Source: a virus
Strand: one strand, 5' to 3'
IMG/VR virus record: IMGVR_UViG_3300046012_000806
Location: 6,385 to 70,384 of that record
Length of the DNA stretch: 64,000 nucleotides
Of this stretch, positions 12,360 through 37,988 are shown one piece after another (positions within the stretch are counted from its first letter, which is position 1; the number at the start of each line of letters is the position of its first letter). Made by a program: the position numbers and the translations under genes. A model generated the notes under the pieces. It did no database searches. It was not told the origin of the DNA and was given only the letters and a program-made list of their open reading frames with translations.

Positions 12360-13244
12360 TCAGACGCTGAGGCGGTCGATGTTGTGCTTTTTCGCGAACT
12401 CGGTCAGCGCGTTGCCGCTGTCGGCCGCCAAAGGCTGGCGATTGGCAGGGCGAGCCTTCAGCTGATTCACGACAAGCTCCACCATCGGCCGCAGGGCCGA
12501 TGGGTGAACGCCTTTGTGCTTGACGCCGGAGTGGTCGAGCGCAGCGACGTAAATCTTTTCTGCCGTGTCCATCGCGATTGTGACCTCGCCGATGATCGGC
12601 CGGACCAGGTTCTGGGCTTCGGTGCGGTCCGCGAACTGCCGTTTCATCTCGGCAATGGTTTCGTCGCGATTTTTCCGCAGCGCCGCGTCCATGGCCGTTT
12701 TGTTGACCATGCCCTTCATCTTCATCTTCTCCTTTTCAGCATCTTCATCTTCGTCGGTCGCGGCCTCCGGAAGATCGTCGGCCATTTCGTCTTTGGCGTC
12801 GCCGTCGCCACTCCTCATGAGCTCAAGCACGCGGTCAATTTCTTCAGGCTGGCACTTCCCTTCGAGAATGGAGCGCAGTTCCTCTTCGCGGCCATCATCG
12901 AAGGAGATGTCGTTGAGCTCTTCCGCGTCATCGTCTTCATTCTTCTTCGCCGACTTGGGCGGCTCTTCCTCGTCCATCGCCTCGTCCGAAGGGCTCAGCT
13001 TGTCGAGAAGCAAGTTGAGATCGTCGAGCGAAGCGTCCTTGGCGAGCTTGCCGGCCGTGGCCTTCTTGAGATCGATGACAAGCGTCGGGCGCACCGTCTT
13101 GAAATTGCGGGCAGTCGTGCCCTTGAGAATGGCGCGCAGGTCGATGCTTGAATCCTTCGCGAGCTTCGGCCCGAGGTACACCATCAATGCGCCCTGGGTG
13201 ATCGCCGCGTGCCGAGACAGCACGGGGTTGGTATGCTTAGTCAT
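12360..13244 (-). CDS. Nested in-frame scaffold protein from an internal start
   Basis: TAAGGAG Shine-Dalgarno followed by in-frame ATG (MTKHTNP) just after the protease domain; same arrangement as lambda C/Nu3. Confidence 0.6.
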   Translation of the reverse strand: MTKHTNPVLSRHAAITQGALMVYLGPKLAKDSSIDLRAILKGTTARNFKTVRPTLVIDLKKATAGKLAKDASLDDLNLLLDKLSPSDEAMDEEEPPKSAKKNEDDDAEELNDISFDDGREEELRSILEGKCQPEEIDRVLELMRSGDGDAKDEMADDLPEAATDEDEDAEKEKMKMKGMVNKTAMDAALRKNRDETIAEMKRQFADRTEAQNLVRPIIGEVTIAMDTAEKIYVAALDHSGVKHKGVHPSALRPMVELVVNQLKARPANRQPLAADSGNALTEFAKKHNIDRLSV

Positions 13245-13964
13245 GGTCTTCTCCTTACTGTCGTTGGCTTGCTTAGTCTCTTTTTTCGGCCCGTTCTTTT
13301 TTTCGTCAAACTGGCCGACATTCCAATTCACCTTCATGCCATTCGGCAGTGAATCTCCGACCACAACGTCTGTTCCGGCGCGGCCGTCCTTCACTATTGC
13401 GACGTGGTTGCCGCGAATGTTGCGCATCACGCCGTCATACCGCTGGCCTTTGTAAGTGCCGGACGTCATGTCCGCGTCGTAACGGTATGACGACGAAAGT
13501 TCATGCTGGCGCTCATTTTCAATCTCTTCGATCATCGCCCCGTCCCAAACGGTGAGCGGCGCATCAAGGTAAGGGTCATTGAACTCAACCTTGTCTCCGA
13601 CCGACCCGACAACATCGTCCCTCGGATGGTCAGCGGCGAAACTGGGCGTGTGCCGCAGCAGCAGCGGCTTACCGACAAACGTGGCCGCGCCCTTGCGCAA
13701 TTCTTCCGGATCACGGAAAAGTTGGTAAACCTTTTCCGGATCAAGGCCCAGGCTCTCGCTGTCCGGGATTTCTTTGCCATAATAAGGGTTCACGCAGGCC
13801 TTTGAGATATGCGACAAGGCCACGCGCAAGTGGCCGTCCTCGTCCTTTGAGCGCACAGAGTTGCGGTCCATGGCCACGCAGTCGTTGGCGGCTCCATCAA
13901 CGAGATGAAGGTCGCCAGACTTATACATGAACCTGTTGTCCTCTTCCTCATCGAGCATCGTCAT
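12360..13964 (-). CDS. Prohead protease-scaffold (DUF2213) with N-terminal RFxYxxGDL leader peptide
   Basis: Start reassigned to ATG 13964 (ATGA overlap with the upstream stop); VNPYYGKEI, ELSSSY, GNHVAIVxxGRAG; acidic helical C-terminus. Confidence 0.85.
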   Translation of the reverse strand: MTMLDEEEDNRFMYKSGDLHLVDGAANDCVAMDRNSVRSKDEDGHLRVALSHISKACVNPYYGKEIPDSESLGLDPEKVYQLFRDPEELRKGAATFVGKPLLLRHTPSFAADHPRDDVVGSVGDKVEFNDPYLDAPLTVWDGAMIEEIENERQHELSSSYRYDADMTSGTYKGQRYDGVMRNIRGNHVAIVKDGRAGTDVVVGDSLPNGMKVNWNVGQFDEKKNGPKKETKQANDSKEKTMTKHTNPVLSRHAAITQGALMVYLGPKLAKDSSIDLRAILKGTTARNFKTVRPTLVIDLKKATAGKLAKDASLDDLNLLLDKLSPSDEAMDEEEPPKSAKKNEDDDAEELNDISFDDGREEELRSILEGKCQPEEIDRVLELMRSGDGDAKDEMADDLPEAATDEDEDAEKEKMKMKGMVNKTAMDAALRKNRDETIAEMKRQFADRTEAQNLVRPIIGEVTIAMDTAEKIYVAALDHSGVKHKGVHPSALRPMVELVVNQLKARPANRQPLAADSGNALTEFAKKHNIDRLSV

Positions 13965-15217
13965 TGAATCAACTCGCAATTGATTATTCTTTTTTTGGCA
14001 TCGATCCCTGTGATTTTCAACTTTGAGCCACGTTGAATGACGATCTCAAATTCATCATCATCGATGTCGGCAGCCTTGATGGCGGCAGCTTTCTGCCCCT
14101 TTTTTATATTGACTTCAAGAATCAAAGACCCATCCCCTTTGGCGAAGGATTTCGCGACCGACTTTGAGGTCGATACGCTAATGAAGCCATTGTCTTGAAA
14201 TTCGTCTCCAATTTTTGCATTCTTGAGAAACTCTTCGGCCATGTCGCCGCTCATTCCCCGATACGTGGACACATCTTTTAACATGGATGATCGATTAAGC
14301 CACTCTTCTATATTTTTTGTCGATACATAGCTTTTGGCGCCTGATTGGTGCTCGCCTGTCTTGCGAAGGTGGCCATTCATTTTTGAGAATTGCGTGCCCT
14401 TGTAATTCACTATTGAAAATATCTCGCCATCGCCTTGTGGCTCCGGGCGATTGGCCGCGACTTCTTTCAGAGCCTTTCCGTGCGGGGAGGCGAAGAACTT
14501 TTCATAACGCTTCTGTTCGCGGGTTTTTTTACCGCCAGAGCCTTTCCCGAACTCGCCATTGTCGGCGCGAGGGTGCTTGCTTTCATCAAACTCACCTGCG
14601 TCGTTGGCCAGCTTTCCTTTGATGATCTTCTCAACGGCAGGATGCATGGGCGCCGGCAAGGCGTCCGGCAAGAACCATCCATGGTCAGAGTGTTCGTTGT
14701 TCAACTTGATCTCAGGCAATGGACCGTGCAGTGGGCAATGAAAGGTTGAAAACTTCATTCCGTTCGGCGTCGTCACTTCGTTGGGGTCTGAAAAGCTCGC
14801 GTCGCCATCAATTGGCGCCCAGCCGATTTCTTCTCGTGATTCGCGCAGCGCGCCTTGCGCAGGCGTTTCGTCCGGCTCAACACCGCCGCCCGGCAGCGCC
14901 CAGTGGCCGACGTAATTGTCCTTGCCCTCTTCGCCAGCTCGCTTGAGCAACAAGACGCGGCCGTCGGGGGCGACGTACATGACGCCTGCAGCGCGCTTGG
15001 CGGGGGCCGCATCGTCTTCCGCATGTTCCGGCTCCGCCGCTTCTTCACGTAGCCACTTCGTGATCAGCATGCCGAGTTGCGACCAGTCCGGGCCGCTCAT
15101 GTCGTGCGACACAAACTCCTTGCCGACCTTCTGCGAAACGCCAGCACGCTTCGCGAATGCCGGGTTATGGGCCACAGCTTCCATGAAACGGTGTTGCTTC
15201 GCAGATTTGGTCGGCAC
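13961..15217 (-). CDS. Nudix hydrolase - ADP-ribosyltransferase fusion, probably head-associated
   Basis: Canonical Nudix box GGVEPDETPAQGALRESREEIG; KHPRADNGEF tag; VIP2-like R-S-E motifs TYRG, GFISVSTS, EFE. Confidence 0.85.
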   Translation of the reverse strand: MPTKSAKQHRFMEAVAHNPAFAKRAGVSQKVGKEFVSHDMSGPDWSQLGMLITKWLREEAAEPEHAEDDAAPAKRAAGVMYVAPDGRVLLLKRAGEEGKDNYVGHWALPGGGVEPDETPAQGALRESREEIGWAPIDGDASFSDPNEVTTPNGMKFSTFHCPLHGPLPEIKLNNEHSDHGWFLPDALPAPMHPAVEKIIKGKLANDAGEFDESKHPRADNGEFGKGSGGKKTREQKRYEKFFASPHGKALKEVAANRPEPQGDGEIFSIVNYKGTQFSKMNGHLRKTGEHQSGAKSYVSTKNIEEWLNRSSMLKDVSTYRGMSGDMAEEFLKNAKIGDEFQDNGFISVSTSKSVAKSFAKGDGSLILEVNIKKGQKAAAIKAADIDDDEFEIVIQRGSKLKITGIDAKKRIINCELIQ

Positions 15218-15229
15218 GGGTCTATGACC

Positions 15230-15622
15230 TCACGAGCACTTCGGATCAACGGCGACGCACATCTGGTAGATGACGCGCGCCGACTGGCCGGTCTTCGGCA
15301 AGAGCGCCTTGATGATCGTCACTTCTTCCGGCGACAGGTCGTTGACGCCATCGCGAAGCTTGTCCGCGAGCTTTGCGCGCTCGACGATGGCGCTCAGCTT
15401 CATGTTCTCTTCGCCTTGGTAGCGCACGTCAACCATTCGCGACAATGCGACGCCAATCTTGAGATCGCCATATTTGTCGCACTTGGTCTTGTCAACGTCG
15501 TTCACCTTGACGCATTCCTGCAGCGGCGTGCCGCTGTCGGTCAGCAGCAGGTCGTCCAGCGACGCAGCAGCGGCAGGAACCGCGCTGAGCGCCAAGACGA
15601 TCACAAAAGCAGATTTAATCAT
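15230..15622 (-). CDS. Signal-peptide protein, possible fibre chaperone
   Basis: MIKSAFVIVLALSAVPAAAA signal; four Cys; follows the fibre gene. Confidence 0.45.
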   Translation of the reverse strand: MIKSAFVIVLALSAVPAAAASLDDLLLTDSGTPLQECVKVNDVDKTKCDKYGDLKIGVALSRMVDVRYQGEENMKLSAIVERAKLADKLRDGVNDLSPEEVTIIKALLPKTGQSARVIYQMCVAVDPKCS

Positions 15623-15674
15623 TTCTCTCTCGCTCTCTCAACATCTCCCGCCGTGAATGGCGGTAAGATTCAGC

Positions 15675-18311
15675 TTAAACACAAGTTCCGCCGACTAGGG
15701 CCGTAACAATCCCGCCCGTGTACGTCACCCCTGTCGGCGCGACTGAACAAACCGCGCTGATGCCGGCCACGCCCCCGGCTTTGTATCCCAAGGCATCGAT
15801 GGTCGCATAACCAGTCTGCGCCGTCGTGCGGATTTTCAGAACCGCGTCGGTGGCGAAGTCAAAACCGACGCCGGCCGTGGCCGCATTGTTCGTCACGTTC
15901 ATCTCGCCGTCTGCCGGCGACGAGACCAAGCTGCGGCCGCTCCATTGATAAGATGAACCGGCCCCGGCCACAACATTGCTGCTAATGGTGACGACGCCCG
16001 CTGAAGAAACAGAAAATCTCGCAACCCCATTCAGCCAAACGCTGAGCAGGTCCCCAGCGAATGCGCTGGGCGCATTGACTCCGAGCATTGTGCCCGCAGT
16101 GTTCCAGATCGTCGTGGTTGCGCCGGCCGTCTCAATCAACGCCAGCGGCTTCGTGGTCGTGGACGTGCCACCTGTTATCGGCGCACCGCTGATCAAAAAT
16201 GTGGAGGAGGACAGCGCATTGCTGCTCGGCAGAGTGAATGAACCGTTCACGGTCAACGACAGCGACGCCGCCAGCAAGTTGCCTTTCATCAACGGTGTTG
16301 AGCCGGTGGTTGAGCAAACCTTAAATTGACTGGCCGTGCTGCTCGCGTCCGCGTCGCAATTCGCGGCGGTGCCCATTATTATGTTGTTTGACCCGGTGGA
16401 AAGCGTGACGGAAGCCACGCTGTACCCCATGATCAAGTTGAAGCTTCCCGAGACGATTGCTGATCCGGTTTGGTATCCAACGCCTATGTTGCCAGTGCCG
16501 GAAGCGTCAGCATCAAGCGATTGAAAGCCCATTGCAACCGAGCCGGTGCCTGTCAGGTGGGCTTTCAGCGCTTGCGCGCCAACGGCCGTGGTCTGGCTGG
16601 CCGTGGTTATGGCTGTAGAGGTCGTGGCCCCAACGGCCGTGTTGCTGGACGCGGCCCCTGCAATATTAAGCAAGGTGTCCTTGCCGAAGCTGGAATTGCT
16701 GCCGCCAGTGTTGGGTGACCCGGTTGAACCTTCTCCCGCGCCGGAACCCATGAACGTGTTGTTGACGCTCGTGACGTTCGCCCCGGCGAACAGTCCGAAC
16801 GCGCTGTTGGATGTCTGCGTCGTGATGGCGGTCAACGTTCCACGACCGAATGCGGCGTTGTTTGACCCCGTAGTCAGGTTCTGCAAAGCATTGACGCCCA
16901 CGGCCGTCGTGGCCACCGTGCCTTGGATCGAACTAGCGGCGTTGTACCCTATGATGACGGCATTTGAGCCGGTATGTGGCACGGCGATGTCGTAAACCGA
17001 AGCGCCAACTGGCACGTCCCCAAATAACAACGTGCTGATGGTTATGGATACATTCGGGTTAACTGAAACGATCGTGGATCCAACTTGTGCGCAGCACAAA
17101 AAGACCGTATCCCCGACGTGATAGATGGTCGTGTCAGTGAAGAACAACGTCGCCGTGCCAGCGGACGAGACGCTGGTGACGGTTGTGGAGGGTGAAGTCC
17201 CGACGCCGGCCGAACGGCCAATTATGACGTTATTCGACCCCATGCCGAACTGATAGGCGTTCTGGCCGATGACGACGTTGCCGTCCGTATCGACAAGCGA
17301 CTGCCCCGCGCCTTGCCCGTAAAGAGTGTTAGCCGATCCGGTGGCGAGGCCATACGCGGCATTGAAACCGATGGCGGTGTTGAAGCTCGCAGTTCCGTGA
17401 ATGTTGATGCATGAAGCCTCGCCCAGGCACGTGTTGTCTACGCCGGTCAGGGCCGGAGATGCGGCGACGCCGGACCCGCCGCGCCCGCTGAACGCGCCGA
17501 TGAAGGTGTTGGACGACCCACCGATTGCCCACTGCCCGGCGACATGACCGACAAAGGTTGAGGACCGCCCATCGATCCAACTCTGCCCGGCCTCGAACCC
17601 GATGGCGACGGTGGAATCGCAAGTCACGCATGCCGCCAGCACGCCGCCTTGGCCGAGCGCCACATTGTTTGACGCGCCGCCCGCGCCGGTCGGGGACGGA
17701 AGCGCCCCGGTCCCGATGACGAGGTTCTGGTTACTGTCCGGAATGGTTTGCGAGATCGGCCCGTTGAATGTTGATGTACCTGTCACGGCCAGCGTGAAGG
17801 AGCCGAGCGTCGCGCCGCCCAGCGCCAGGTTGGCGGCCTCAAGGCCGGCATACCCGCTGTTGTCCGCCAAACGAACTTGGAGCTTGGCGGACGACCGGCG
17901 CAGCGACGGAGAGGAAGACGTTGTGTCGCCAAACGCCACGATGCCGCCCGTGACGACGTTCCCGCTAATCGCCAAGGCAGGAGAGGCCAGAACGCCGGTC
18001 GCGATATTGAATGAGAAATTGGCGTTTTGGTCAAGCGCCGTTTCATTCTGAAACAATACCAACTTGTCCGTGCCGCCCGTGATCGTCGCGCCGATCTCCA
18101 GCGACGCGGCCGGCGCAGAGCCGAGCAAGATTGACGCCGTGACCTTTTTCGACACGCCGTCCTGAACAAGATACAGCAAGTCCGCATCGTTCACGACGCT
18201 GGCGCTTGGGCATGAAGTCAACGTGCCGCAGACCTGCGCCTGTGCGGAGGAAAGCGCCGCCAACTGCGCAATGAAGAGCGCGAATATGATTCGAGGCATC
18301 AACTTCATCAA
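15675..18311 (-). CDS. Fibre/spike-like protein with YadA-type NxAxG beta-roll repeats and a signal peptide
   Basis: Many NTAIG/NTFIG/NNAAFG repeats at roughly 14-aa spacing; hydrophobic N-terminus ending AQA. Confidence 0.7.
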   Translation of the reverse strand: MMKLMPRIIFALFIAQLAALSSAQAQVCGTLTSCPSASVVNDADLLYLVQDGVSKKVTASILLGSAPAASLEIGATITGGTDKLVLFQNETALDQNANFSFNIATGVLASPALAISGNVVTGGIVAFGDTTSSSPSLRRSSAKLQVRLADNSGYAGLEAANLALGGATLGSFTLAVTGTSTFNGPISQTIPDSNQNLVIGTGALPSPTGAGGASNNVALGQGGVLAACVTCDSTVAIGFEAGQSWIDGRSSTFVGHVAGQWAIGGSSNTFIGAFSGRGGSGVAASPALTGVDNTCLGEASCINIHGTASFNTAIGFNAAYGLATGSANTLYGQGAGQSLVDTDGNVVIGQNAYQFGMGSNNVIIGRSAGVGTSPSTTVTSVSSAGTATLFFTDTTIYHVGDTVFLCCAQVGSTIVSVNPNVSITISTLLFGDVPVGASVYDIAVPHTGSNAVIIGYNAASSIQGTVATTAVGVNALQNLTTGSNNAAFGRGTLTAITTQTSNSAFGLFAGANVTSVNNTFMGSGAGEGSTGSPNTGGSNSSFGKDTLLNIAGAASSNTAVGATTSTAITTASQTTAVGAQALKAHLTGTGSVAMGFQSLDADASGTGNIGVGYQTGSAIVSGSFNLIMGYSVASVTLSTGSNNIIMGTAANCDADASSTASQFKVCSTTGSTPLMKGNLLAASLSLTVNGSFTLPSSNALSSSTFLISGAPITGGTSTTTKPLALIETAGATTTIWNTAGTMLGVNAPSAFAGDLLSVWLNGVARFSVSSAGVVTISSNVVAGAGSSYQWSGRSLVSSPADGEMNVTNNAATAGVGFDFATDAVLKIRTTAQTGYATIDALGYKAGGVAGISAVCSVAPTGVTYTGGIVTALVGGTCV

Positions 18312-18398
18312 AGCTCTCGCGCTTCGTCAGCCATGCACAGCACAATGGCCAAGCAGAATAAGCAGAAGTCCAAAGCGGTCATTATCATGAACTGGCGC

Positions 18399-19763
18399 TC
18401 ATTGGATGAGTTGCAGAACGGCGTTATCGACATCGAACGTCTGACCGGCAGTCCCGAGTGTTTGCAGCGCCATCGCATAGGTCGTTGTCTGCGTCCCCAA
18501 AAAGAGCGCATAGAAGCCGCCAGCGTTTGGCACGGGAGTTGCGGCAAATGCAGGCGCGGGCGACGACGTTGAGCCGTTGCTGTTGCTGGTCGCCGCAAGC
18601 GACGCGCCATTCACTGCGGAATAATTAAATCCGACGAGATAATAAGCGCCGACCGTCGTAGAGACGCCCTGCATCATCCGGTTCTCGCCGCTGGCCGAGC
18701 GCGTGAAGCGCGCCACGCCGCCCGATGCGGCATTCCAGGCAATCGAGCCGGACGCTATGGGCGTCGCCCACCCCGTAAGGCTTGTGGCGAAATCGGCGTT
18801 TGTAAGAAGATTCGCGTTGAACGATGGGCTTGTCGCATCCGTACCGAAGCTGACGGTCCAAGCGAAAGCCTTGGTTCCAAGCGTGCCGTTGGCCTGCTCA
18901 AAATAGATTTTTGTCCGCACGTCATCGCGAACAATCACGAAGCGCCGACCAGGGGCGCTCGTGCTGTGCCAACGCATTGTGCGCCCCGAAGACGAGTCAC
19001 GGATTTGCACGTCAGGTGACGTAAGCAAATATGTATAGCTCAATGCTGCTATCGGCACACTTAGGCGCGAGGCCCCGTCAGTCGGGGCGACAGACGCCGA
19101 GTCGGCAAGGTGGCTGAATATACCCATTCCAATGTAAGTCGTGGTGTACGATTGGCTCGAAGAAATAGACGGGGCGTTGAATGCGATCGTTCCGTCGGTG
19201 CTTGCCGTTTCCGAAAACCCCGTCACCGTCACGGTATTGGACGAATTTACGATAGACGAGTCGTGGGTTACGACAAGCTGTGTGCCAATCGGCGCATCCG
19301 TCATCGGGTTGAACGCCACGCCGTCCATCTTGAGCGTTTCTGCCGTGACTGTCTCGCCGCCGTGATACGAACCGGCAAAGAGGCCGTTCGCGCTGAAGGC
19401 ATAGTCCTGCGCGCCGACATCGCTTGAATAGGTGTATGTCGCGTCGGCTGGCGCGGAAGCAAACGTCGGCAAAACGCTCGTGCCAACGTAACGCCACGGC
19501 TGAAACGGCGAACCAACCGATCCGGGTGGCGTGCTGGAGTCGCCATTGTTGTTGCGGATGAAATGATGGCAGAGGATGACGCCAGATGTTGTTGTATTGA
19601 CGACCGCATAGAAGCTGTTGGCCGTGTCTATAACAATGCGGATTGACGGCGGGGCAGCGCCGCTGGCCCCTGCGCCCAACAAAAGCAGCGATTGCGCAAA
19701 TGCGACCGACGACGCAAAAACGAATGCGGCTACAGCTACAAAGTATTTTGAAAAGCGGTTCAT
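18399..19763 (-). CDS. Exported beta-rich protein with C-terminal carbohydrate-binding-like domain
   Basis: Start reassigned to MNRFSKYF (signal ending AFA); NLLTNADF..GW...DN typical of CBM-like jelly rolls. Confidence 0.5.
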   Translation of the reverse strand: MNRFSKYFVAVAAFVFASSVAFAQSLLLLGAGASGAAPPSIRIVIDTANSFYAVVNTTTSGVILCHHFIRNNNGDSSTPPGSVGSPFQPWRYVGTSVLPTFASAPADATYTYSSDVGAQDYAFSANGLFAGSYHGGETVTAETLKMDGVAFNPMTDAPIGTQLVVTHDSSIVNSSNTVTVTGFSETASTDGTIAFNAPSISSSQSYTTTYIGMGIFSHLADSASVAPTDGASRLSVPIAALSYTYLLTSPDVQIRDSSSGRTMRWHSTSAPGRRFVIVRDDVRTKIYFEQANGTLGTKAFAWTVSFGTDATSPSFNANLLTNADFATSLTGWATPIASGSIAWNAASGGVARFTRSASGENRMMQGVSTTVGAYYLVGFNYSAVNGASLAATSNSNGSTSSPAPAFAATPVPNAGGFYALFLGTQTTTYAMALQTLGTAGQTFDVDNAVLQLIQ

Positions 19764-19764
19764 C

Positions 19765-20289
19765 TTATTTATAAACAAAGTTGATAGCCACACCCGTTGC
19801 GGCGTTTGTGTTGTCGTTGTCGGCTAAACCGCCCGTCAGGCAAAAGCCAATGCCGGCGCTGAAGCTCATGCCGACATTGAGCGGCAAGACGAAGCCCGCG
19901 CCTGCCGTGGAAGCTGGCACGGGATACGTCTGCAAGACCGCATCGCTATTGCATGTCGGCGCGGTCGCCTTATCATACAATTTCAGATAGTAGAGCGTGG
20001 CCGTCGTGTTAATAACGGCCAGCGCGTAGACGTTGCCGGCAGACGCTTTGACGTTCGTTGCGTTTGTGGACGCCGCCGACAGGTAATGCGCTGGCGTCGC
20101 GCCGCCGCTCGTAGCTCCAGAGCCGGAAACCACCAGCGGATTGGCCGCCGTCCCGCAAGGGCCAACGCCGACACAGATCAGCCCGACGCCGGGCACCGCC
20201 TTGCCCGCGCCGTTGGGATAATCCTGGGCGAGCGACGGAGAGGCCGACGCCCAAACGAGCGCCAGCAGAAAGAGCGAAAGCAATTTCAT
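19765..20289 (-). CDS. Exported head-spike/fibre base-like protein
   Basis: Start MKLLSLF at 20289 (signal ending SLA); TNATNVKASAG..YLKLYDKATAPT..FSAGI. Confidence 0.5.
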   Translation of the reverse strand: MKLLSLFLLALVWASASPSLAQDYPNGAGKAVPGVGLICVGVGPCGTAANPLVVSGSGATSGGATPAHYLSAASTNATNVKASAGNVYALAVINTTATLYYLKLYDKATAPTCNSDAVLQTYPVPASTAGAGFVLPLNVGMSFSAGIGFCLTGGLADNDNTNAATGVAINFVYK

Positions 20290-21086
20290 GAAAACCCCAC
20301 CACGACGGGCCGTGATACGCATCGGCAGTTGATCAATTCCCCAGGGAAGATGTGCCGGCCCTCATGCGGGTCAAACCACCCTTCGCTGCATTTGTACCGC
20401 GTCTTCGCCATGCCGGCCGCGAGATGAGTCGGGCGCGGCTCCTTGCCGGCCGTCGAATGAACCCATATCGCTTCCGCAATGCCGACTTCCTGATAACGCG
20501 CGTTGATCAGCGCAGACGTGGCCTTGTTGTTCTGGTCGCGGGCGATTAGCGCGGCGCGACGCTTGGTGACGCCGAATTGCTTGCGCAGGTCGTCGGACAA
20601 TTGGCCGAGATCGCGGCCGGTCTGCACGGAGCGCATCACCATGCCTTCAACTTCACCAAGAAACTTCTGCGGAATTGACTTGATCAGCGCGACGTTCTGG
20701 TTGACTGTGGCGTTGATAATGTCGCGTTGCGCGCGGGTCATTGCGAAGTTGTTGAGCGTGAAACCGCCATCGCGCAAAATCTTGGCCAGTTGCGCGTCGG
20801 TGCGCTTCGAAATCGACATCGCGAAATGCTTCGCCATCTTCTTGCTCATGTCGCCGAAGCGCCGTTGCCACTGGCGCGTCAGCCTATCAATCACAGCCTT
20901 CAATGCTGAAGCCGGAAGTTCATCTTGCGCAATCACGGGCTCATTGGCGTTGTAGGCTGACCGCACCCAATGCATGACTGACTTGAACATTTCATTGACG
21001 AGCGCCTTGAGCTTCTTACGGTACACCGCTTCAATGCCCGCGTTCGGGCGCACTGTGCCGAGCGATTTAAGGGTGACGGCGATCAC
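20286..21086 (-). CDS. Head morphogenesis protein (MuF / SPP1 gp7 family)
   Basis: Start reassigned to GTG 21086; RAALIARDQ, WxHS..PRPTH, PGELINCRC. Confidence 0.85.
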   Translation of the reverse strand: MIAVTLKSLGTVRPNAGIEAVYRKKLKALVNEMFKSVMHWVRSAYNANEPVIAQDELPASALKAVIDRLTRQWQRRFGDMSKKMAKHFAMSISKRTDAQLAKILRDGGFTLNNFAMTRAQRDIINATVNQNVALIKSIPQKFLGEVEGMVMRSVQTGRDLGQLSDDLRKQFGVTKRRAALIARDQNNKATSALINARYQEVGIAEAIWVHSTAGKEPRPTHLAAGMAKTRYKCSEGWFDPHEGRHIFPGELINCRCVSRPVVVGFS

Positions 21087-21098
21087 AGAATTTCGCCC

Positions 21099-21127
21099 TT
21101 TCCAAGCGCCGGACGAAGGCGCATAAT
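21099..21127 (+). promoter_or_regulatory. Promoter for the antisense mini-gene
   Basis: TTTCCA-N17-CATAAT, a variant of the phage TTTCTT-N17-CATAAT motif. Confidence 0.55.
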
Positions 21128-21160
21128 GGCCGGCCGTCCATGGCGAAGAGGAGAGCGAAG

Positions 21161-21319
21161 ATGAGCGACGAAAAAGAGCCCAAGCCTGAAGCGACAAAAG
21201 AAGAAAGCGAGCAGGCCGCTGCAAGAGAGCGCTTTGAATACAAGGAGGGCGACCTTCAAATAATCAAGGTCGGAGAGCCCAAGCCCCCGGCTGATAAAGA
21301 AAAAGAAGAAGATCACTGA
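21161..21319 (+). CDS. 52-aa acidic peptide carrying RFEYKEGDL (candidate ART inhibitor)
   Basis: Not in ORF track. GAGGAG RBS; MSDEKEPKPEATKEESEQAAARERFEYKEGDLQIIKVGEPKPPADKEKEEDH; its stop overlaps the portal stop convergently. Confidence 0.7.
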   Translation: MSDEKEPKPEATKEESEQAAARERFEYKEGDLQIIKVGEPKPPADKEKEEDH

Positions 21320-24300
21320 ACCAATTCACATTTCATGTGACTTTTCTCGAAGTCGAACGACACGACCCGCAGCATCGATCCGCACTGCACGATGATTTCG
21401 TTTTCACCGTCAGAGTCGTCATGAGCGCGAATTGCTGCGGCCTTTTGTCCTTTCTTCATGGCGATGTCCATTGTCATTCCATCATACCCATCTTCGCCCC
21501 AATTTTTGGCAAAATCTGGGCTTGTTGTGGTGCTGATGAACCCACGGTCCATGAATATTGATCCTTCAAACGCCATCGAGCGCAGGAACTTTGCGTATGC
21601 GCCTTTGATTCCTCGATGGACCGTTACATCAATAGGCAGTTCCGCTCTGTCCAGCCAGGCCTCTACATACTTCGTTTCATGGCTGTGCTTGCCAGAATGA
21701 CGAAGTTTGTCGTTCATGCTTATATAGCCAGAACCTTTATAAAAACTGATGGCGCTGGCCTCTTCCTGCGTGGGAGTGGGCCGCGCTTTGGCGATCTCTT
21801 TGCGGGTGGCGACATGAACGGGGACTGCGGGTTTCGGCTGCAGGTGGTCTGGAATCTGCTCCATAGTATTCTTGACGCCGAGGCTTTCAAACTTCGCTTT
21901 GTCGCCGTCCAGGAGCGCTTGCAGCGCTTCGCTGCCTTGACCCTTCTTCGTCTGGAAGCTGGGCGTTTGCAGCGTCCAGCTTCCAGACTTTTCTAGGGCG
22001 AGGAGCGATTTGCCCTTTTGCAGGATCGTCGGGTCTTCACCATTGGCTGAAGACAATAAGGTGAACCCGGCATTCAACATTGTGGCATAAATGTGAGCTT
22101 TTGCCGGTTCGACTTTTGCCGGTTCGGCTTTTGCCGGTTCGGCTTTTGCCGGTTCGGCTTTTGCCGGCAGGTGCTTTTCTATGACCGCTTTGGCTTGATC
22201 AAAGAACTTTTGCTTATCCGCGCCTTTCAGCTGCGTGACGAGCTTCTTGAGTTGATCAAGACTCTTGGGTCCTTTTTCCCCGGCCGCATTGTTTATGGCC
22301 GTGTGCAAGTCTTGATAGATGTTTTTCTTCACTTCATTGGGCAATTCAACGATGCCCTTGAACAACTGGCCCTTTTGCGTGATCGGGGCGATACCACCGC
22401 CAGACCCTTTCGAGAATTGACCGCCCTTGTCGCGCGGGTGCTTGCTTTCCTCGAACTTGGCCTCGTCGAGCGCCCACAGCAGTTCATGAAAGTCAGCGTC
22501 CGAAGCGAGAAAAGGGACCACGCTGTCCTCAGCTGCCTCCGGACCGCCAACTCCTGTTTGGACGACGTGCACGACTTTCATAGTCTTAGTTTTCTTTTTA
22601 CCTGATAACCTGTCTTTGTACGTCACCGACTCTTTGCTAACTTTCAATACGTTGAACTTGCCGCTTGAAGTTAACTCTCTGTCGGTATCAATCCCGATGC
22701 TGAACCCATGGCCCACCCCGCGCGGGTGAATCTTGTTTTCGCTACGAGACCAAAACGCAGGCACCGTGGCGTGCTCGTCTTCGCGTCGAGAGCCTTCCAT
22801 GGCCCGTGTTGGCAGCATACGTGCGCCAGGATCAACTTTAATAAGGACGCCGCCAGCATACGTCATGGCTGAATCTTGATCCGCCGAGAATGCCACAGGG
22901 CCGCCAAGCTCAAAAGAGCCGCCTTCCTTAACTGAAAAGGACTTACACCCACGATATGTGGTCTCTGAAGTTTTCGGCGCGTGCTGTAAGGTTTCAAAGT
23001 ATCCAGCAGTATCATGGGATACTTTGCGTAAATCATCATGACTAAGCCCGCTCGCATTAAGCAATTCCTGGATGTTGGGATTAGATGCCAACTCGCTTAT
23101 CTGCGTCCCCTTGCGCGTCTGATTGACGATTTCTCTTATGGCCAATGACTTCTTGTTATCGGCAGCATACAAGCTTACGATATCAGCGGCGCTCTTAAAA
23201 GACGGATTGGAAGCGTACTCCTCGTGCAATTCCTTTGCTAATTTCTTATTGTCTTCGTAGGATAGCTGGTCAATGCCTCGATGCGACGCAAACTCATTTA
23301 ATTTTGTTGTCCCAGGGCCTTCGCCAAATTGACCATTCTTTGCTCGTGGGTGTTTCGCTTCGTCAAAATCACCAATATCATCAAAAGACAAATCGTCGCT
23401 TAACCGCGAAAAAGGGATCACGCTGTCTTCAGCTGCCTCCGGACCGCCAGCGTCCTCGTCCTGCGGCTGCGGCCGTCCGCCTTCCGGCTCAAGGCCGGTT
23501 TCTTCCTCGCCTTGTAAGTCCGGAACGTTCTCCACGTCAATGGACGAGTAAGCCGAGTTCTCGTCAGCCGCCACGGCGGCGCGCACCTCTTCCGGAGCGA
23601 GAACGCCTTTGTCGATATAAACGCCGGCCGTGTCGGCCTCTTGCTTCCGGACCGCCGCGCGCTTTTCCTCGTCCAATGACCAAAGCGGCTCCCACCGCCA
23701 GACAATGTCGTCGTCGATGTCGCCCCACAGCGTCATCATCAAGACTTTGGCGAGCTTGGTTATGTTCGGAGTGCCGATGCGCTCCTGCTCTGATTTGATC
23801 GTGTCGTAGAAGGCGCGAATTTCCCCGTCCGACGAAGCGTTCAGGCCTGATGGCGTAATGCCGAACAATTTGACGAGCGGGATGCCCGCGATGCCGGCCA
23901 TTTGCTCCTGGGCCTGCGCCTGCAGTTTGTCCAGCGAACCGAGCGGCGCAGAGACGTTGGTGAAGCCCTCGCTGTCCTTATCCACCATGAACAAGCCGAG
24001 GTTGTTGCGCGCATCATTGTAAAACGCACCGCGCGCTCTCAACAACTCCATTCCGCCAGGCTCCATCATTGCGTCCATTTGAATGGACATCACCATGGTC
24101 GAAAAGTTGCTGATCAAGCTCGACACAGACTGTCGCGTCTCAAGCCAGTTCTGCACATAAGGGAAAAGCAACTGCGTGAGCGAAACACCACCGAACAAAT
24201 ACTGCGGCTTCAGCATGTCCGGAACCGGACGCGAGTTGAACGACAAAAGGCGCGAGGAGTTCACCTGATTGGACAAAATGAACCAAGTTTGCGGCCGGTA

Positions 24301-25038
24301 AAAGTCGTCAGCCAGCGGATCGATGGCGTTGTACTGATTTGGGTACATCCATATCGGCTCAATGCACCGCAGAGCTTTCAGCGGATCGCCCTTTTTAATT
24401 TTCGCACGCAGCAACCGGTCACCGAGCGGGGCGGTCAGTTCATCGCCCTTCGCGCCGGTATCGATCAAGATGTGACCAATGCCGAAGAAGTTATCAAGCT
24501 CGTAGCTGCGGCGAAAGGTCTCTTGAACATTCAGCCGATCAAACTCGTCCATGAGAGCATTGATCTTGTCCGTCTTGCTTTCGTCTTCAGACTTGCTGAC
24601 GAACTTGCCCCATTCCCGCGTCATCTCATTCGCGAGAATGGAGCTTGGTCGGCGGAACTCCGGAATTTGCGCGAGGTCGCTGAGCAACGCATAACCCATG
24701 AAGCCATAGCCGCCCCAGGCGTGTTGCGCTGCGAAATTTCTGACGCTGACGATTTGCGAATCAGCGGCCAACATCGGCTTGCCGTGCCCGGCCGGAATCA
24801 CACCGGGCGACGGCGCAGGGATGCTCTCCTGAAAAACCAGAGAGGGGCGTCCGCCCTCCGCCCCTGGTAAACGTACCAGCGGGGCGCGCGAGGCCCTCAG
24901 CCGCCCAGCGGCCTCGGAGAAAACCCGTGCCCGCTCCAGGTTCGCGGCCCTGAGCTCGCTGTCCGTCTTGGCGCGCACCTGCGGCGGGGGCGTGAGGCCC
25001 CAGTTCGCCAGCTTGTGCAGCGCCGTCCGCAGGCTCAT
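21313..25038 (-). CDS. Portal protein (DUF1073 type) fused to two tandem ART-like domains
   Basis: Follows TerL; IPLVKLFGITPSGLNASSDGE portal motif; ART1 TYRG/AFS/DRE; ART2 VHRG/GFISTT/ENE; start reassigned to ATG 25038. Confidence 0.85.
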   Translation of the reverse strand: MSLRTALHKLANWGLTPPPQVRAKTDSELRAANLERARVFSEAAGRLRASRAPLVRLPGAEGGRPSLVFQESIPAPSPGVIPAGHGKPMLAADSQIVSVRNFAAQHAWGGYGFMGYALLSDLAQIPEFRRPSSILANEMTREWGKFVSKSEDESKTDKINALMDEFDRLNVQETFRRSYELDNFFGIGHILIDTGAKGDELTAPLGDRLLRAKIKKGDPLKALRCIEPIWMYPNQYNAIDPLADDFYRPQTWFILSNQVNSSRLLSFNSRPVPDMLKPQYLFGGVSLTQLLFPYVQNWLETRQSVSSLISNFSTMVMSIQMDAMMEPGGMELLRARGAFYNDARNNLGLFMVDKDSEGFTNVSAPLGSLDKLQAQAQEQMAGIAGIPLVKLFGITPSGLNASSDGEIRAFYDTIKSEQERIGTPNITKLAKVLMMTLWGDIDDDIVWRWEPLWSLDEEKRAAVRKQEADTAGVYIDKGVLAPEEVRAAVAADENSAYSSIDVENVPDLQGEEETGLEPEGGRPQPQDEDAGGPEAAEDSVIPFSRLSDDLSFDDIGDFDEAKHPRAKNGQFGEGPGTTKLNEFASHRGIDQLSYEDNKKLAKELHEEYASNPSFKSAADIVSLYAADNKKSLAIREIVNQTRKGTQISELASNPNIQELLNASGLSHDDLRKVSHDTAGYFETLQHAPKTSETTYRGCKSFSVKEGGSFELGGPVAFSADQDSAMTYAGGVLIKVDPGARMLPTRAMEGSRREDEHATVPAFWSRSENKIHPRGVGHGFSIGIDTDRELTSSGKFNVLKVSKESVTYKDRLSGKKKTKTMKVVHVVQTGVGGPEAAEDSVVPFLASDADFHELLWALDEAKFEESKHPRDKGGQFSKGSGGGIAPITQKGQLFKGIVELPNEVKKNIYQDLHTAINNAAGEKGPKSLDQLKKLVTQLKGADKQKFFDQAKAVIEKHLPAKAEPAKAEPAKAEPAKVEPAKAHIYATMLNAGFTLLSSANGEDPTILQKGKSLLALEKSGSWTLQTPSFQTKKGQGSEALQALLDGDKAKFESLGVKNTMEQIPDHLQPKPAVPVHVATRKEIAKARPTPTQEEASAISFYKGSGYISMNDKLRHSGKHSHETKYVEAWLDRAELPIDVTVHRGIKGAYAKFLRSMAFEGSIFMDRGFISTTTSPDFAKNWGEDGYDGMTMDIAMKKGQKAAAIRAHDDSDGENEIIVQCGSMLRVVSFDFEKSHMKCELVQ
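22097..22167. repeat. 15-bp tandem repeat (~4.7 copies) encoding a PAKAE linker
   Basis: gcttttgccggttcg units. Confidence 0.9.
22510..23449. repeat. 40-bp direct repeats (22510-22549, 23410-23449) flanking the ART1 cassette
   Basis: 38/40 identical, exactly 900 bp apart, encode GGPEAAEDSV(I/V)PF. Confidence 0.9.
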
Positions 25039-32673: not shown

Positions 32674-33726
32674 ATGACCAACGAATACGACGAAGCCACC
32701 CAAAAGGCCATGGACAAGATCGAGAAGCTCATGCGGCTCGCTTCGTCCAACCCCAACGAGGCCGAAGCCGCCAGTGCCCTCAGCAAGGCGCAAGAGCTTT
32801 TGGCCGCGTACAATCTTGACCTCTCAGCCATCGAGGCCAACTCCGGCGCGAGCGGCAAGCGGCTGGACGCTATGGTGACGGGCGGGATGCACCGTTACCA
32901 ACGCTCCCTCATGAAGTCAATTGCGCAGCTCAATTTCTGCATGTACTGGACTATGAAAGTTCCGGTCAAGGCCGGTTCTGCGCAGGCCAAGCGCGGTCGC
33001 CAGTTCACCCACGAGCACCGGCTCGTGGGCCGGCAGGTGAACGTCATTCAAACGCGCAACATGGCCGATTACCTGAACTCCACGATTGAGCGTTTGTGCC
33101 GCGACAAGTTGCGGGACGATGGCTTGAGTCCTCAGAGCCAGTTCTATTCGGCCTGGGCCATTGCCTTCCGCGAAGGCATCGCCGACCGGGTGATTGAAAA
33201 GCTCGTGCGCCGTCGGCGCGCAAACGTGGACGAGGAGGCGCAAAAGGCGGCGGAAGCCGCGCGGGCCGCTTCTGCGGCGGGCACGTCCTCCGCCACCGGG
33301 CTCACACTCGCTTCCCTGGTCAAGCGCGAAGAGGCCGCCAATTACGACTTCCTCCATGGGGAAGGCGCATGGGCGCGGCGCGAGGCCGAATGGGCAAGCA
33401 GCGAAAAGCTCTGGGCAGAGCGCCGCGTGCAGGAGGCCGCAGCCCGCGCGGCGGCGGAAAAGAGCTATGCCGAATGGGCCGTTGCGCACCCGGCCGAAGC
33501 TGCCCAGGCGGAAGCCGAACGCGCCGCCGCCGCCCGCAAGGCTGAGAAGGCCGAAGCCGCGAAGGCCGCGCGCCGCTCCGGCCGGCGTTACAGCTTCCGC
33601 CAAACGGGCGAGGAGTTGCGCCGCAACTCCGGCGGTTACGCGGCCGGCTACGAAGCCGGCAAGCACATCTCCATAGACCCGCAGACCAGCAACCAGAAAT
33701 CAGGAGCGCTCTCCGATGGCCGATGA
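32674..33726 (+). CDS. DUF2786-domain protein
   Basis: KIEKLMRLA..NEAEAASALSKAQELL; AFREG; GYAAG. Confidence 0.75.
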   Translation: MTNEYDEATQKAMDKIEKLMRLASSNPNEAEAASALSKAQELLAAYNLDLSAIEANSGASGKRLDAMVTGGMHRYQRSLMKSIAQLNFCMYWTMKVPVKAGSAQAKRGRQFTHEHRLVGRQVNVIQTRNMADYLNSTIERLCRDKLRDDGLSPQSQFYSAWAIAFREGIADRVIEKLVRRRRANVDEEAQKAAEAARAASAAGTSSATGLTLASLVKREEAANYDFLHGEGAWARREAEWASSEKLWAERRVQEAAARAAAEKSYAEWAVAHPAEAAQAEAERAAAARKAEKAEAAKAARRSGRRYSFRQTGEELRRNSGGYAAGYEAGKHISIDPQTSNQKSGALSDGR

Positions 33727-34078
33727 TCGTTTCATGTATGACGCGGGCGACTTATCAATCGTTTACGGCAAGCCGCGCGCCGCGCGCAACGCTAGGAGCA
33801 AACCAATGAGTGAACGCAATCAAATGTTCATCAACTTTGACCAATGGGTTTGCATGGCAAGCTCTTGGCTGACGCGCCATCCGCAATATGACAAAACGGA
33901 ATTTCGCGCAATATGTTTTGATTCGCGCGGGCGCATTTGCGCGTGCGGCAAGGACTTCATGCGGGCGCGCGACGAAAATGCATTCCCTGTCATGTGGGTC
34001 TGGCCGGACCAAGTCGCAGAATTTCTGGCCAGGTCTGAGGTGTTTTTTGATGAAGTTGTTAGGGTTGGCCCCCGATGA
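33716..34078 (+). CDS. Hypothetical protein with N-terminal RFMYDAGDL module and internal start at 33806
   Basis: AGGAG RBS before both 33716 and 33806. Confidence 0.6.
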   Translation: MADDRFMYDAGDLSIVYGKPRAARNARSKPMSERNQMFINFDQWVCMASSWLTRHPQYDKTEFRAICFDSRGRICACGKDFMRARDENAFPVMWVWPDQVAEFLARSEVFFDEVVRVGPR

Positions 34079-37657: not shown

Positions 37658-37988
37658 GATGTACGGAAATCAATTACCGTGGCTTATGCTCATAGGTGGG
37701 TCGTTTGGTTTTGGCATCGGTGTATTCGGAATGCTGATAGCCTACCTATGCGGCTTTCGTCTGTAAGAAATCAGGAACCTGCAAATCCACGACTGGATAA
37801 TAAGGAGAAAGAAAAATGAAATGGTTGTGCAAGATATTCGGCCACACATGGGCATTCGATCGCAACGAACCGGGGCCAAACGGCTGGTGGTGGGAATTTT
37901 CAAAATGTGATCGCGAATGCGGAGCAGAAAGCCGCATGCTGGTAGCGAGTCCTCGTGGGTGATACTTCGAGTTAGAAAGGACAAACCA

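Follow-up and report, generated by a model that had tools for sequence, protein, structure and literature searches.

Candidate capsid-loaded ADP-ribosyltransferases in a phage head module: a junction motif of cargo proteins and a short peptide predicted to fill the catalytic cleft

The first minutes of infection are decided by the proteins that a phage injects, and for very few phages is it understood how these are chosen, loaded into the head and prevented from harming the producing cell. The question is raised by a 64,000-nucleotide (nt) stretch of the IMG/VR virus record IMGVR_UViG_3300046012_000806 (bases 6385-70384; the record is one contig of 70,384 bp, rated 100% complete and linear), referred to here as the window. 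On the minus strand of the window, the head module of a tailed soil phage of roughly 70 kb encodes three domains resembling ADP-ribosyltransferases (ARTs), two appended to the portal protein and one following a Nudix hydrolase domain. Each is preceded by a short "junction motif" containing the residues K-H-P-R, a putative prohead protease of the DUF2213 family is encoded directly after the Nudix-ART gene, and a short peptide motif beginning with R-F (the "RF peptide") occurs in three copies, labelled A, B and C.

The interpretation developed here, which in our judgement has about an even chance of being correct, combines capsid-loaded ARTs, processing at the junctions, and RF peptides that act as plugs. 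Enzymes would be loaded into the capsid by fusion to proteins from which the prohead is built, the cargo entering the prohead together with its carrier. The cargo would comprise three ARTs of the R-S-E type, two on the C terminus of the portal and one behind a Nudix hydrolase that is itself a recurrent cargo. Each module would start with [FW]-[DE]-E-x-x-H-P-R-x3-G-x-F and a glycine-rich stretch, a general delimiter of "polyvalent" cargo proteins, and the DUF2213 protein, predicted to have the gp21/assemblin protease fold, or another protease would separate cargo from carrier, possibly after the near-invariant glutamate of the motif. Peptides of the form RF-x-[YW]-x-x-G-D-[LI] would be cognate partners lying in the ART cleft and keeping the enzyme inactive in the producing cell; copy A, borne on the scaffold, could in addition anchor the free Nudix-ART there, and digestion of the scaffold would remove this copy. 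The active ART would then be injected with the DNA, and copy C, in the early region, could switch it off again. The parts of this scheme differ in strength. Because ARTs are fused to the portal, we infer that they are loaded into the capsid, which is very probable, and injected. Cleavage at the junction motif, argued by analogy with other prohead proteases, could as well be wrong as right, and the odds are similarly balanced for inhibition of the ART as the role of the RF peptide.

ART-like domains on head proteins

Three ART-like domains in the head module had been proposed in an earlier note drawn up from the DNA sequence, and all three were recovered here, two by Pfam and the middle one by a custom profile only. 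With the Pfam family ADPrib_exo_Tox (PF03496, cut-off 23.4 bits), residues 1095-1249 of the portal open reading frame (ORF) score 49.3 bits (expect value, E, 4.9e-13) and residues 268-408 of the Nudix ORF score 59.2 bits (E 4.6e-16), and phrog_802, "Alt-like RNA polymerase ADP-ribosyltransferase," matches the portal at residues 1094-1223. The catalytic motifs of R-S-E ARTs are named R, S-T-S and [EQ]-x-E, and the catalytic R, S and ExE are kept in both Pfam-matched domains, as HRG/STT/ENE in the portal and as YRG/SVS/EFE in the Nudix protein; they are likewise retained in all four related ARTs that were aligned. The closest solved ART is 8za7_B (Lmo0066), a protein on which no structural paper was found. 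A search for loci related to the single KHPR-ART protein found no relative, and in a homologue search with residues 196-418 of the Nudix-ART protein none of 904 candidates scored.

The middle domain of the portal protein (residues ~596-845) is more difficult to place. It has no Pfam match even at E<=10, tblastn against 50,697 phage records returned nothing, phmmer against the PDB gave nothing useful (best E 0.45, a ribosomal protein), and phmmer with the domain minus its linker against the 150 motif proteins described below gave a self-match only; a single-sequence AF2 model, with a pLDDT of 44.7, is unusable. With a custom ART profile, for which only proteins other than the one in the window were used, the domain scores 17.8 bits (E 1.5e-7 for one target), against 6.9 bits for the best of 500 shuffles, and the alignment puts its YRG, A-F-S and E-D-E on the R, S-T-S and ExE positions. 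A language-model look-up, treated as a lead, returns ART clusters (0.94, 171 of 256 features). A BLASTP match between the middle domain and the Nudix-ART (E 2e-4 in one comparison) consists partly of shared linker with the YRG misaligned, and was not relied on. Two features of the domain count against a scheme with three working enzymes: the first serine of S-T-S is replaced, in A-F-S, and an insertion follows E-D-E. Judged from its sequence, the middle domain is a divergent ART, possibly an inactive one.

The two carriers are built of discrete parts, whose coordinates are collected in Table 1. In the portal gene the portal domain is followed by two cargo modules, the first in the order repeat, KHPR, divergent ART and the second in the order repeat, KHPR, linker domains, ExE ART; the start at M16 (25038) agrees with a public gene call, P0007, for the same protein. 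The (PAKAE)n sequence of the linker is encoded by four to five tandem 15-nt units (22097-22171), and the small linker domain is also found ahead of the ARTs in L033 and L065, two of the related loci that were fetched (L numbers throughout), as judged by eye from translations and unscored. That the ARTs reside on proteins from which the prohead is built, as the earlier note had it, is borne out for the portal, and for the Nudix protein in that proteins of its type are elsewhere fused to portal or protease. The N terminus of the Nudix-ART protein matches phrog_16759 as well as two families, phrog_22033 and phrog_25121, that carry the label "virion structural protein." The N-terminal module of about 40 residues, "MP[TS]xSxxQHR...", is conserved (window 15098-15217, L065:8829-8945, L003:6001-6120/Shewanella phage QDWS_44) and is possibly a capsid-targeting module of these Nudix proteins.

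A junction motif of phage cargo proteins

Ahead of each ART in the window stands one copy of F-[DE]-E-x-K-H-P-R-x3-G-[QE]-F, the three copies all lying on the minus strand and being 63-73% identical in DNA over 73 nt. The regular expression HPR...G.[FWY] has three matches in the 70,384-bp genome, whereas 200 mononucleotide shuffles give 0.23 on average (maximum 2). An order of A-x-D, KHPR and ART had been described for all three domains, and this description stands in part. KHPR does precede all three ARTs and A-x-D does lie upstream of all three, but A-x-D has no fixed distance or register relative to KHPR and is common, being present in 36% of all 40-residue windows of the three proteins, and was set aside as a specific site. 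A clearer upstream element is GGPEAAEDSV[IV]PF, which occurs twice and heads both portal cargo modules (40 nt, 95% identical).

A much wider distribution emerges from searches with a 40-column junction profile, built from the three window copies and two copies of a related contig, L013. Against 1,835,955,588 cluster representatives, this profile gave 2,187 matches at E<=1e-3, 221 at E<=1e-10 and 5 at E<=1e-30. The best 150 matched proteins are 189-7334 residues long and contain 2-17 matched stretches each, with the regular-expression motif present in 148 of them. The 435 instances with enough flank, used for a logo, give [AL]-A-x-[DE]-[FW]-D-E-S-K-H-P-R-D-x-x-G-[KR]-F-G-x-G-G-G, in which glutamate occupies position -3 in 97%, phenylalanine or tryptophan position -5 in 95%, and the tail is glycine-rich. 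Neighbouring copies are spaced by a median of 269 residues (309 gaps), and in 58 of the 148 motif proteins a copy lies no more than 70 residues from the N terminus, resembling a removable leader. Local profiles (E<=1e-5) identified R-S-E ARTs in 47 of the 150 best proteins, this portal type in 13, Nudix in 9, MuF in 5 and DUF2213 in 3, with none of the five in the other 95. Among 10 motif proteins examined with Pfam, two matched ART-PolyVal, one matched ADPrib_exo_Tox and seven had no match; seven further motif proteins include Portal_Mu with a type IB topoisomerase, Phage_portal, MuF with a 2H phosphoesterase, and zeta toxin.

The same picture is obtained at the level of gene neighborhoods. 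A pattern scan of IMG/VR matched 380 stretches, of which 103 were confirmed and 80 kept, representing 78 distinct loci. In these the motif is positioned after the portal domain, after MuF, between DUF2213 and scaffold, between Nudix and DUF2213, and before ARTs; this portal type is found in 43 of the 78 loci, MuF in 38, DUF2213 in 31 and an ART in 20. From these comparisons, the KHPR motif is a widespread module-junction motif of phage cargo ("polyvalent") proteins. It is no tag peculiar to ARTs or to this phage.

The domains found behind the motif in individual proteins are varied. Two proteins from the same 409,570-bp contig, P0005 (7334 residues) and P0118 (5313 residues), carry 15 and 16 regular-expression copies of the motif and at least nine and at least six R-S-E ARTs, respectively. 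Behind the junction motif lie a topoisomerase IB-like domain on the portal of L013:583-3000 (by eye only), Pfam Topoisom_I on a Mu-type portal in L093:8255-13732, a zeta toxin in L043:7478-10927, a 2H phosphoesterase on MuF in L088:7931-10144 and, ahead of an ART, a domain named ParB-like by one source in L065:9506-11470. Portals or adjacent genes of the Pseudomonas syringae phages Orimi01 and Orisa01-03 and of the Xanthomonas phages PhiXhv-5 and PhiXhv-7 match the motif as well.

A protease that might act at such junctions in this phage is the DUF2213 protein, whose ATG overlaps the stop codon of the Nudix-ART gene (ATGA) and which has a 31-residue N-terminal extension ahead of the canonical DUF2213 methionine (13871; residue 37 of the listed ORF). 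His74, Ser126, His156 and Arg164 are invariant in an alignment of 37 DUF2213 domains from the window and the fetched loci. An AF2 model of the domain (pLDDT 86.9) has as its top Foldseek matches herpesvirus proteases and T4 gp21, with a probability of ~1 and E values of only 2.6e-3 to 1e-2. Alignment with VIA-align gives Z 10.8 to T4 gp21 (5jbl_A), with a root-mean-square deviation of 2.7 Å over 129 residues, and Z 8-9.9 to herpesvirus proteases, compared with about Z 5 for unrelated rows. The model supports a gp21/assemblin prohead-protease fold for DUF2213, with a putative catalytic role for His/Ser/His, and the earlier assignment of this protein as the prohead protease is backed by this fold and by the invariant residues. 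The modelled fold is that of T4 gp21 and the herpesvirus assemblins; no sequence similarity to these proteases or to SPN3US gp245 is detectable.

The DUF2213 profile also matches, with E 1.9e-33, the first 168 residues of PDB entry 9b40_G, the "scaffolding protein" gp24 of Pseudomonas phage Pa193. In view of this match and of the protease fold modelled for DUF2213 (gp21/assemblin), gp24 too probably combines a protease with a scaffold part. In the available text of the paper on gp24, only residues 286-326 are modelled and cleavage of gp24 is raised as a question, and the word protease is not used.

Some indication of where a DUF2213 protease might cut comes from SPN3US gp245, which cuts after A-X-E with serine favored at P1' according to the available text of PMC10052503. 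Likened to these sites, with the specificity of DUF2213 assigned by analogy only, the candidate gp21-type sites would be [FW]-[DE]-E-[SA] in the junction motif and A-A-E in the GGPEAAEDSV repeat. The alternative that has to be weighed most carefully is that the junction motif is not cleaved at all and is instead a folded or binding element, for example a hairpin for DNA, the capsid interior or the exit channel, in which case the ARTs would stay on the portal. Several observations weigh against cleavage by DUF2213 and suit such an element. The motif is also found with Mu-type (Portal_Mu) and HK97-type (Phage_portal) portals and is tied to no single protease family; its H, P, R, G and F are conserved among phages whose portals represent no fewer than three families (Phage_portal_3, Portal_Mu, Phage_portal), pointing to a common partner and not to one protease; and its conservation runs about 12 residues beyond the candidate scissile glutamate, more than the SPN3US A-X-E sites need. 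Among 19 loci found via the portal alone, just one has the motif. Among 22 distinct DUF2213 tails the motif occurs in two, and any [FWY][DE]E in three; the other 20 protease-scaffold junctions lack the motif, and KHPR as a general DUF2213 protease-scaffold cleavage site is thereby ruled out. On the other side, the motif is found exactly at the borders between carrier and cargo, in proteins of up to 7334 residues that would be hard to pack as one chain on 12 portal subunits; the copies near the N terminus are placed like a cleaved leader; and the near-invariant glutamate followed by serine resembles known gp21-type sites. Taken with these points, a purely structural role for the motif seems a possible but somewhat unlikely account. 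DUF2213 itself is present in 20 of the 21 loci that have a portal and at least 7 kb downstream.

Just past the DUF2213 protease domain of the window lies QFDEKKNG (13290..13313, minus strand), at the place where L013 and L059 have the full motif; from its sequence it could be an eroded remnant of that motif.

The RF peptide and its predicted site on the ART

How the producing cell might be spared the activity of such enzymes is suggested by the second recurrent motif. The regular expression RF.Y..GD has three matches in the genome, and on average 0.02 (maximum 1) in 200 mononucleotide shuffles of it. Copy A begins 27 nt past the stop codon of the Nudix-ART gene, in frame with the DUF2213 gene. 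Copy B, 60 nt away from the portal stop codon, is part of an ORF of 59 residues that is convergent with the portal gene and fills the 226-nt gap between portal and MuF. Copy C heads an ORF of 120 residues in the replication module, where the neighbors match helicase, topoisomerase-like and primase PHROGs; the extension that carries it is present in none of 33 homologues, all of which start at the equivalent of Met31. The earlier claim was that DNA encoding such a peptide follows immediately after both ExE ART genes; of these two peptides copy B is on the opposite strand, and there is a third copy, C. Likeness in DNA among the three copies is confined to the motif codons, and a DNA-level explanation of the repeat was rejected on that ground.

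Among the 100 loci fetched, other phages with an RF motif fall into two further lineages, and the three RF lineages hold the mutually most similar ARTs. In L032, L033 and L034, an RF ORF of 55 residues lies 70 nt past the stop codon of a gene for a portal-motif-ART protein and on the same strand. In L065, the motif is in the C-terminal tail of a Nudix protein, about 100 nt ahead of a gene in which ParB-like domain and ART each follow a junction motif. ART-like domains and RF copies number 3:3 in the present genome and 1:1 in each of the L033 and L065 records, an RF motif lies within about 100 nt of an ART gene in four of five distinct copies, and all three lineages of this ART subfamily carry RF. 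Co-occurrence of KHPR, ART and RF in other phages, a check proposed in the earlier note, was seen as RF beside the same ART subfamily in two other lineages. An RF profile run against 30,675 six-frame segments (100 loci plus the genome) gave 37-41 bits for the known copies and 8 for the next best. A homologue search with the 59-residue ORF of copy B returned only itself.

A specific role for the peptide is suggested by structure prediction. From an ART alignment of 4 rows and an RF alignment of 5 rows, the predicted complex scored 0.84, compared with 0.02 for the best of three controls; of 80 solved complexes 58 attain the mark used for this score, as do 2 of 110 mismatched pairs, counts that are rough, custom alignments having been used here. 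The three prediction runs share at least 84% of contacts, with a partner pLDDT of at least 61. The confident interface comprises peptide residues 28 and 30-48, that is, the RF motif, and on the ART side Arg73 (the arginine of HRG), Ser100-Thr102, Glu143 and Glu145 (of ExE), strand 88-96 and the N-terminal helices. In the model Phe32 and Tyr34 of the peptide rest against Arg73 and Ser100 of the 172-residue ART construct, whose strand S-I-F-M-D-R pairs with D-L-Q-I-I-K. Recall of a complex of like sequence is unlikely because the RF profile has no relative in the PDB (best E 0.96). The ART profile weakly matches 6dre_B and 6drh_B (E 1.5e-5 to 2e-5; PDB label "PAAR repeat-containing protein"), which we take to be Tre1 solved with Tri1. 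On this evidence the RF peptide probably binds the ART, and the model supports occupation of the NAD/catalytic cleft, and hence cleft occlusion, by the peptide.

Several points must be set against an inhibitory RF peptide. The complex score is the model's own confidence, and ART-immunity complexes exist in the PDB. The RF profile was trained on the same copies that it recovers and was built after the regular expression had found the two further lineages. Copies A and C are in-frame extensions of other genes and not free peptides. The motif is limited to three lineages, which form a small and related sample, and common ancestry of the three head modules could explain the co-occurrence of RF and ART; within the flanks available, RF was not seen in 17 further loci (among 21 sources with an ART, several of which duplicate a single contig family).

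These points bear on the proposal that the RF peptide is not an inhibitor and serves instead as a docking handle or as an acceptor of ADP-ribosylation, or is a chance neighbor of inserted ART cassettes. Two RF copies are located within assembly or cargo proteins, at the N terminus of the protease-scaffold protein and in the C-terminal tail of the L065 Nudix protein, as would suit a tether. ARTs of the ExE type are typically arginine-specific, and the RF motif begins with an invariant arginine, modelled near Arg73 and Ser100. Moreover, Nudix and DUF2213 form one polypeptide in relatives, and RF could be an old linker between Nudix and protease beside which ART cassettes were inserted. Against this, the L033 copy and copy B are small free ORFs after portal-ART genes and are joined to neither Nudix nor protease, copy C belongs to the replication module, and among the fetched loci the Nudix-DUF2213 fusions that have no ART have no RF motif either. 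A peptide that fills the cleft would also inhibit whether or not it tethers, and to that extent the tether overlaps with inhibition. A role confined to docking, modification or mere adjacency thus appears unlikely.

A narrower doubt concerns copy B, which could be a dead inverted remnant, with copy A alone functional and the gap product being either a 77-residue, Phe/Leu-rich ORF on the minus strand (21083-21316) or nothing. Copy B is antisense to the late operon, whereas the minus ORF, which lies antisense to the RF ORF and competes for the same DNA, is co-oriented with the operon, and the homologous small ORF of L033 is on the sense strand. Further, the GTG of the minus ORF overlaps the portal stop codon and its TGA overlaps the GTG of MuF, a pattern of translational coupling. 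Codon usage, however, favors the plus ORF, with log-odds of 0.43 per codon against 0.03-0.06 in the minus frames (0.06 for the 77-residue ORF, a low score); 12 correctly framed genes range over 0.24-0.45. The plus ORF is unbroken, has GAGGAG ahead of its second ATG and lies by one promoter-like site (21099-21127; 1 found, 0.3 expected); its RF match scores 39 bits; and a Phe/Leu-rich minus product is to be expected from the antisense of a Lys/Glu-rich gene. We therefore regard a non-functional copy B as quite improbable. An origin of copy B by an inversion bounded by inverted repeats was considered and rejected, just short, weak repeats being present.

It is very improbable that the ARTs act solely within the cell that produces them, at a late stage of infection, and are not set free or injected, the head fusion giving late timing, as might be suggested by T4 ModA and ModB, phage ARTs that are not packaged (PMC5512222, in the text available), given that translational fusion to the portal puts an ART domain inside the prohead by construction, that portal, MuF and protease bear these kinds of cargo again and again in many phages, and that a paired peptide predicted to bind the cleft implies an activity unwanted in the producer.

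If the scheme of capsid-loaded ARTs with junction processing and RF plugs is carried to its limit, the junction motif, as [FW]-D-E-x-x-H-P-R-x3-G-[KR]-F, would tag cargo in nearly all tailed phages, a single short element earmarking any enzyme for processing and release in the prohead, and perhaps for leaving with the DNA, in several portal and protease families. Giant polyproteins with as many as 17 modules would give rise to injected effectors, and RF peptides would form a new class of active-site plugs of about 20 residues for arginine-type ARTs which, on the scaffold-protease, combine the functions of loading tether, safety catch and self-destructing antidote. So broad a version is speculative and rather unlikely.

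Relation to known systems and layout of the head module

The description of this locus as a new system, made in the earlier note, is too strong, as injected ART and Nudix head fusions and small ORFs after MuF toxins have been published (PMC5512222, PMC9503650, PMC5576092, in the text available). "Polyvalent" proteins combine unrelated effector domains in one polypeptide of the packaging module, with ART as the commonest enzyme, and fusions of Nudix, ART and 2H domains to portal, MuF and head peptidase have been described (PMC5512222, PMC9503650). The same two sources, as far as available, regard packaging and injection as probable for ART and Nudix domains fused to MuF, to the portal or to the capsid-processing peptidase. 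The two fusions of the window, portal with ART-like domain and ART, and Nudix with ART, are of this kind and are encoded beside TerS, TerL, MuF, protease and capsid genes. The 47 R-S-E ART proteins among the best 150 motif carriers, one of them with the nine or more ARTs noted above, are at odds with a statement in the available published text.

T4 Alt, an ART made late, provides a close functional precedent, being packaged in the head and injected (PMC5512222, in the text available). The likeness lies in the ART itself, which is of the R-S-E (Alt/VIP2-clade) type, the Alt-like family phrog_802 matching the portal ART; outside the ART core, no sequence match to T4 Alt was found. In the present phage, unlike T4, the ARTs are fused to the portal and to a Nudix protein behind a KHPR motif, with RF peptides adjacent. 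Alt is processed by gp21 via an N-terminal targeting sequence.

MuF toxins offer a second parallel. They carry an effector, ARTs included, on a head protein, with a small putative immunity ORF after 89.4% of 191 genes, and DNA-linked delivery has been proposed for them (PMC5576092, in the text available). They are reported there solely in temperate phages. The 59-residue ORF after the portal-ART gene, although on the other strand, falls within the size expected of such partners (<150 residues), and the RF extension lies at the stop codon of the Nudix-ART gene. The carrier here, however, is a portal or Nudix protein, the partner is a motif of about 20 residues that is free, antisense or fused to neighbors, and the MuF protein is short, ending with its own MuF domain (Pfam, residues 192-303 of 312) and having no toxin domain fused at its C terminus. 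The record contains no integrase or resolvase above cut-off: PF00239 (resolvase) has no match at all, and PF00589 has a weak match of 17.3 bits (cut-off 27.1) at window 37731-38009 (G000 44115-44393) with one TGA and one TAA inside. An HTH (helix-turn-helix) regulator is encoded in the record.

Inhibition of an ART by a partner bound at its active site is exemplified by Tre1-Tri1, in which the immunity protein reportedly occludes the ART active site and is said to be a folded protein with a second enzymatic activity. The RF segment is likewise predicted to lie in the NAD/catalytic cleft of an R-S-E ART, but it is a short linear motif without a PDB relative and not a folded immunity protein. 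Among sequenced phages, the Burkholderia phages Bcep781 (gp17), Bcep43 and Bcep1 have portal-Nudix fusions, with the same type of head module and Nudix cargo, and BcepB1A gp26 and QDWS_44 of Shewanella phage vB_Sb_QDWS are Nudix-DUF2213 fusions, the latter sharing the "MP[TS]xSxxQHR" module. In contrast to the window, these phages have no KHPR motif, no ART and no RF motif.

Three elements of this analysis were not found in print before, namely the junction motif, the RF peptide with its predicted cleft binding, and the protease fold of DUF2213. For the junction motif the search included term searches in the available texts of PMC5512222, PMC5576092 and PMC3482391, supplementary alignments lying outside it, and the HPR motif is not mentioned in the main texts of PMC5512222 and PMC9503650; for the RF peptide, supplementary files were outside the search. 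The literature on DUF2213 is very scant, with none found on mechanism, and the prohead-protease fold modelled for this family is a side result. If the junction motif is a signal for processing or loading, it would provide a sequence rule for recognizing capsid cargo in metagenomes and a handle for loading chosen proteins into heads; its carriers number in the thousands, and in many of them there are domains that belong to no known family. An RF peptide that does plug the active site would represent a natural inhibitor of R-S-E ARTs of very small size, and also a case of an antidote incorporated in a scaffold that maturation destroys.

Table 1. Positions in the window of the cargo fusions, the putative protease, the RF copies and other head genes
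Feature	Position (strand)	Content or match
Portal gene with two appended cargo modules	21313..25038 (-)	1241 aa from M16
Portal domain proper	23626..24681 (-)	Pfam PF06381 Phage_portal_3, aa 135-486, E 3.4e-76; phrog_146 portal, E 1.6e-96
GGPEAAEDSVIPF repeat, copy 1	23410..23448 (-)	contains A-A-E and A-E-D; 40-nt direct repeat, 95% identical to copy 2
Junction motif 1, DFDEAKHPRAKNGQFGEG	23317..23370 (-)	profile match
Middle divergent ART-like domain	22549..23298 (-)	YRG 22948-22956, FSAD 22879-22890, EDEH 22771-22782
GGPEAAEDSVVPF repeat, copy 2	22510..22548 (-)	40-nt direct repeat
Junction motif 2, KFEESKHPRDKGGQFSKG	22405..22458 (-)	
Linker region ahead of C-terminal portal ART	21802..22386 (-)	(PAKAE)n and small domain
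C-terminal R-S-E ART of portal	21337..21801 (-)	HRG 21610-21618, STTT 21523-21534, ENEI 21394-21405
Nudix-ART fusion	13961..15217 (-)	418 aa; 40-aa N-terminal module, NUDIX, junction motif, ART
NUDIX domain	14621-14998 (-)	aa 74-199, Pfam E 7.9e-18
Junction motif 3, EFDESKHPRADNGEFGKG	14540..14593 (-)	in Nudix-ART
ART of Nudix fusion	13994-14416 (-)	YRG 14255-14263, SVSTS 14165-14179, EFEI 14042-14053
DUF2213 putative prohead protease-scaffold gene	12360..13964 (-)	Pfam DUF2213, E 1.7e-47; phrog_2229 "head maturation protease," E 7.8e-122
DUF2213 predicted protease domain	13350..13853 (-)	His 13650-13652, Ser 13494-13496, His 13404-13406
RF copy A, RFMYKSGDL	13908..13934 (-)	N-terminal extension of DUF2213 protease-scaffold protein
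RF copy B, RFEYKEGDL	21230-21256 (+)	in 59-aa ORF 21140..21319 (+), gene call P0002
RF copy C, RFMYDAGDL	33728-33754 (+)	30-residue in-frame extension 33716..33805, before conserved early gene 33806-34078
MuF-type head morphogenesis protein	20286..21086 (-)	Pfam Phage_Mu_F; phrog_324, E 1.2e-77, aligned from aa 53
Small terminase	(-)	phrog_1482 match; head module
Large terminase	25275-26711 (-)	
XM1-gp53-like decoration protein and major capsid protein		last in head-module order, after DUF2213 gene

In the direction of transcription, the head module runs from the small terminase through the large terminase, portal, MuF, four ORFs, Nudix-ART and DUF2213 to the decoration protein and the major capsid protein. 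The likely start of MuF is the GTG at 21086. The four ORFs between MuF and the Nudix-ART gene (130, 878, 464 and 185 residues; 15230-20322, minus strand) have N termini resembling signal peptides. The 878-residue ORF has PHROG matches labelled "tail spike" and "virion structural protein," the 130-, 185- and 464-residue ORFs have no PHROG match, and those of 130 and 185 residues have no Pfam match. In L033 an ORF of 249 residues follows directly after the RF ORF, and its N terminus resembles those of these four ORFs.

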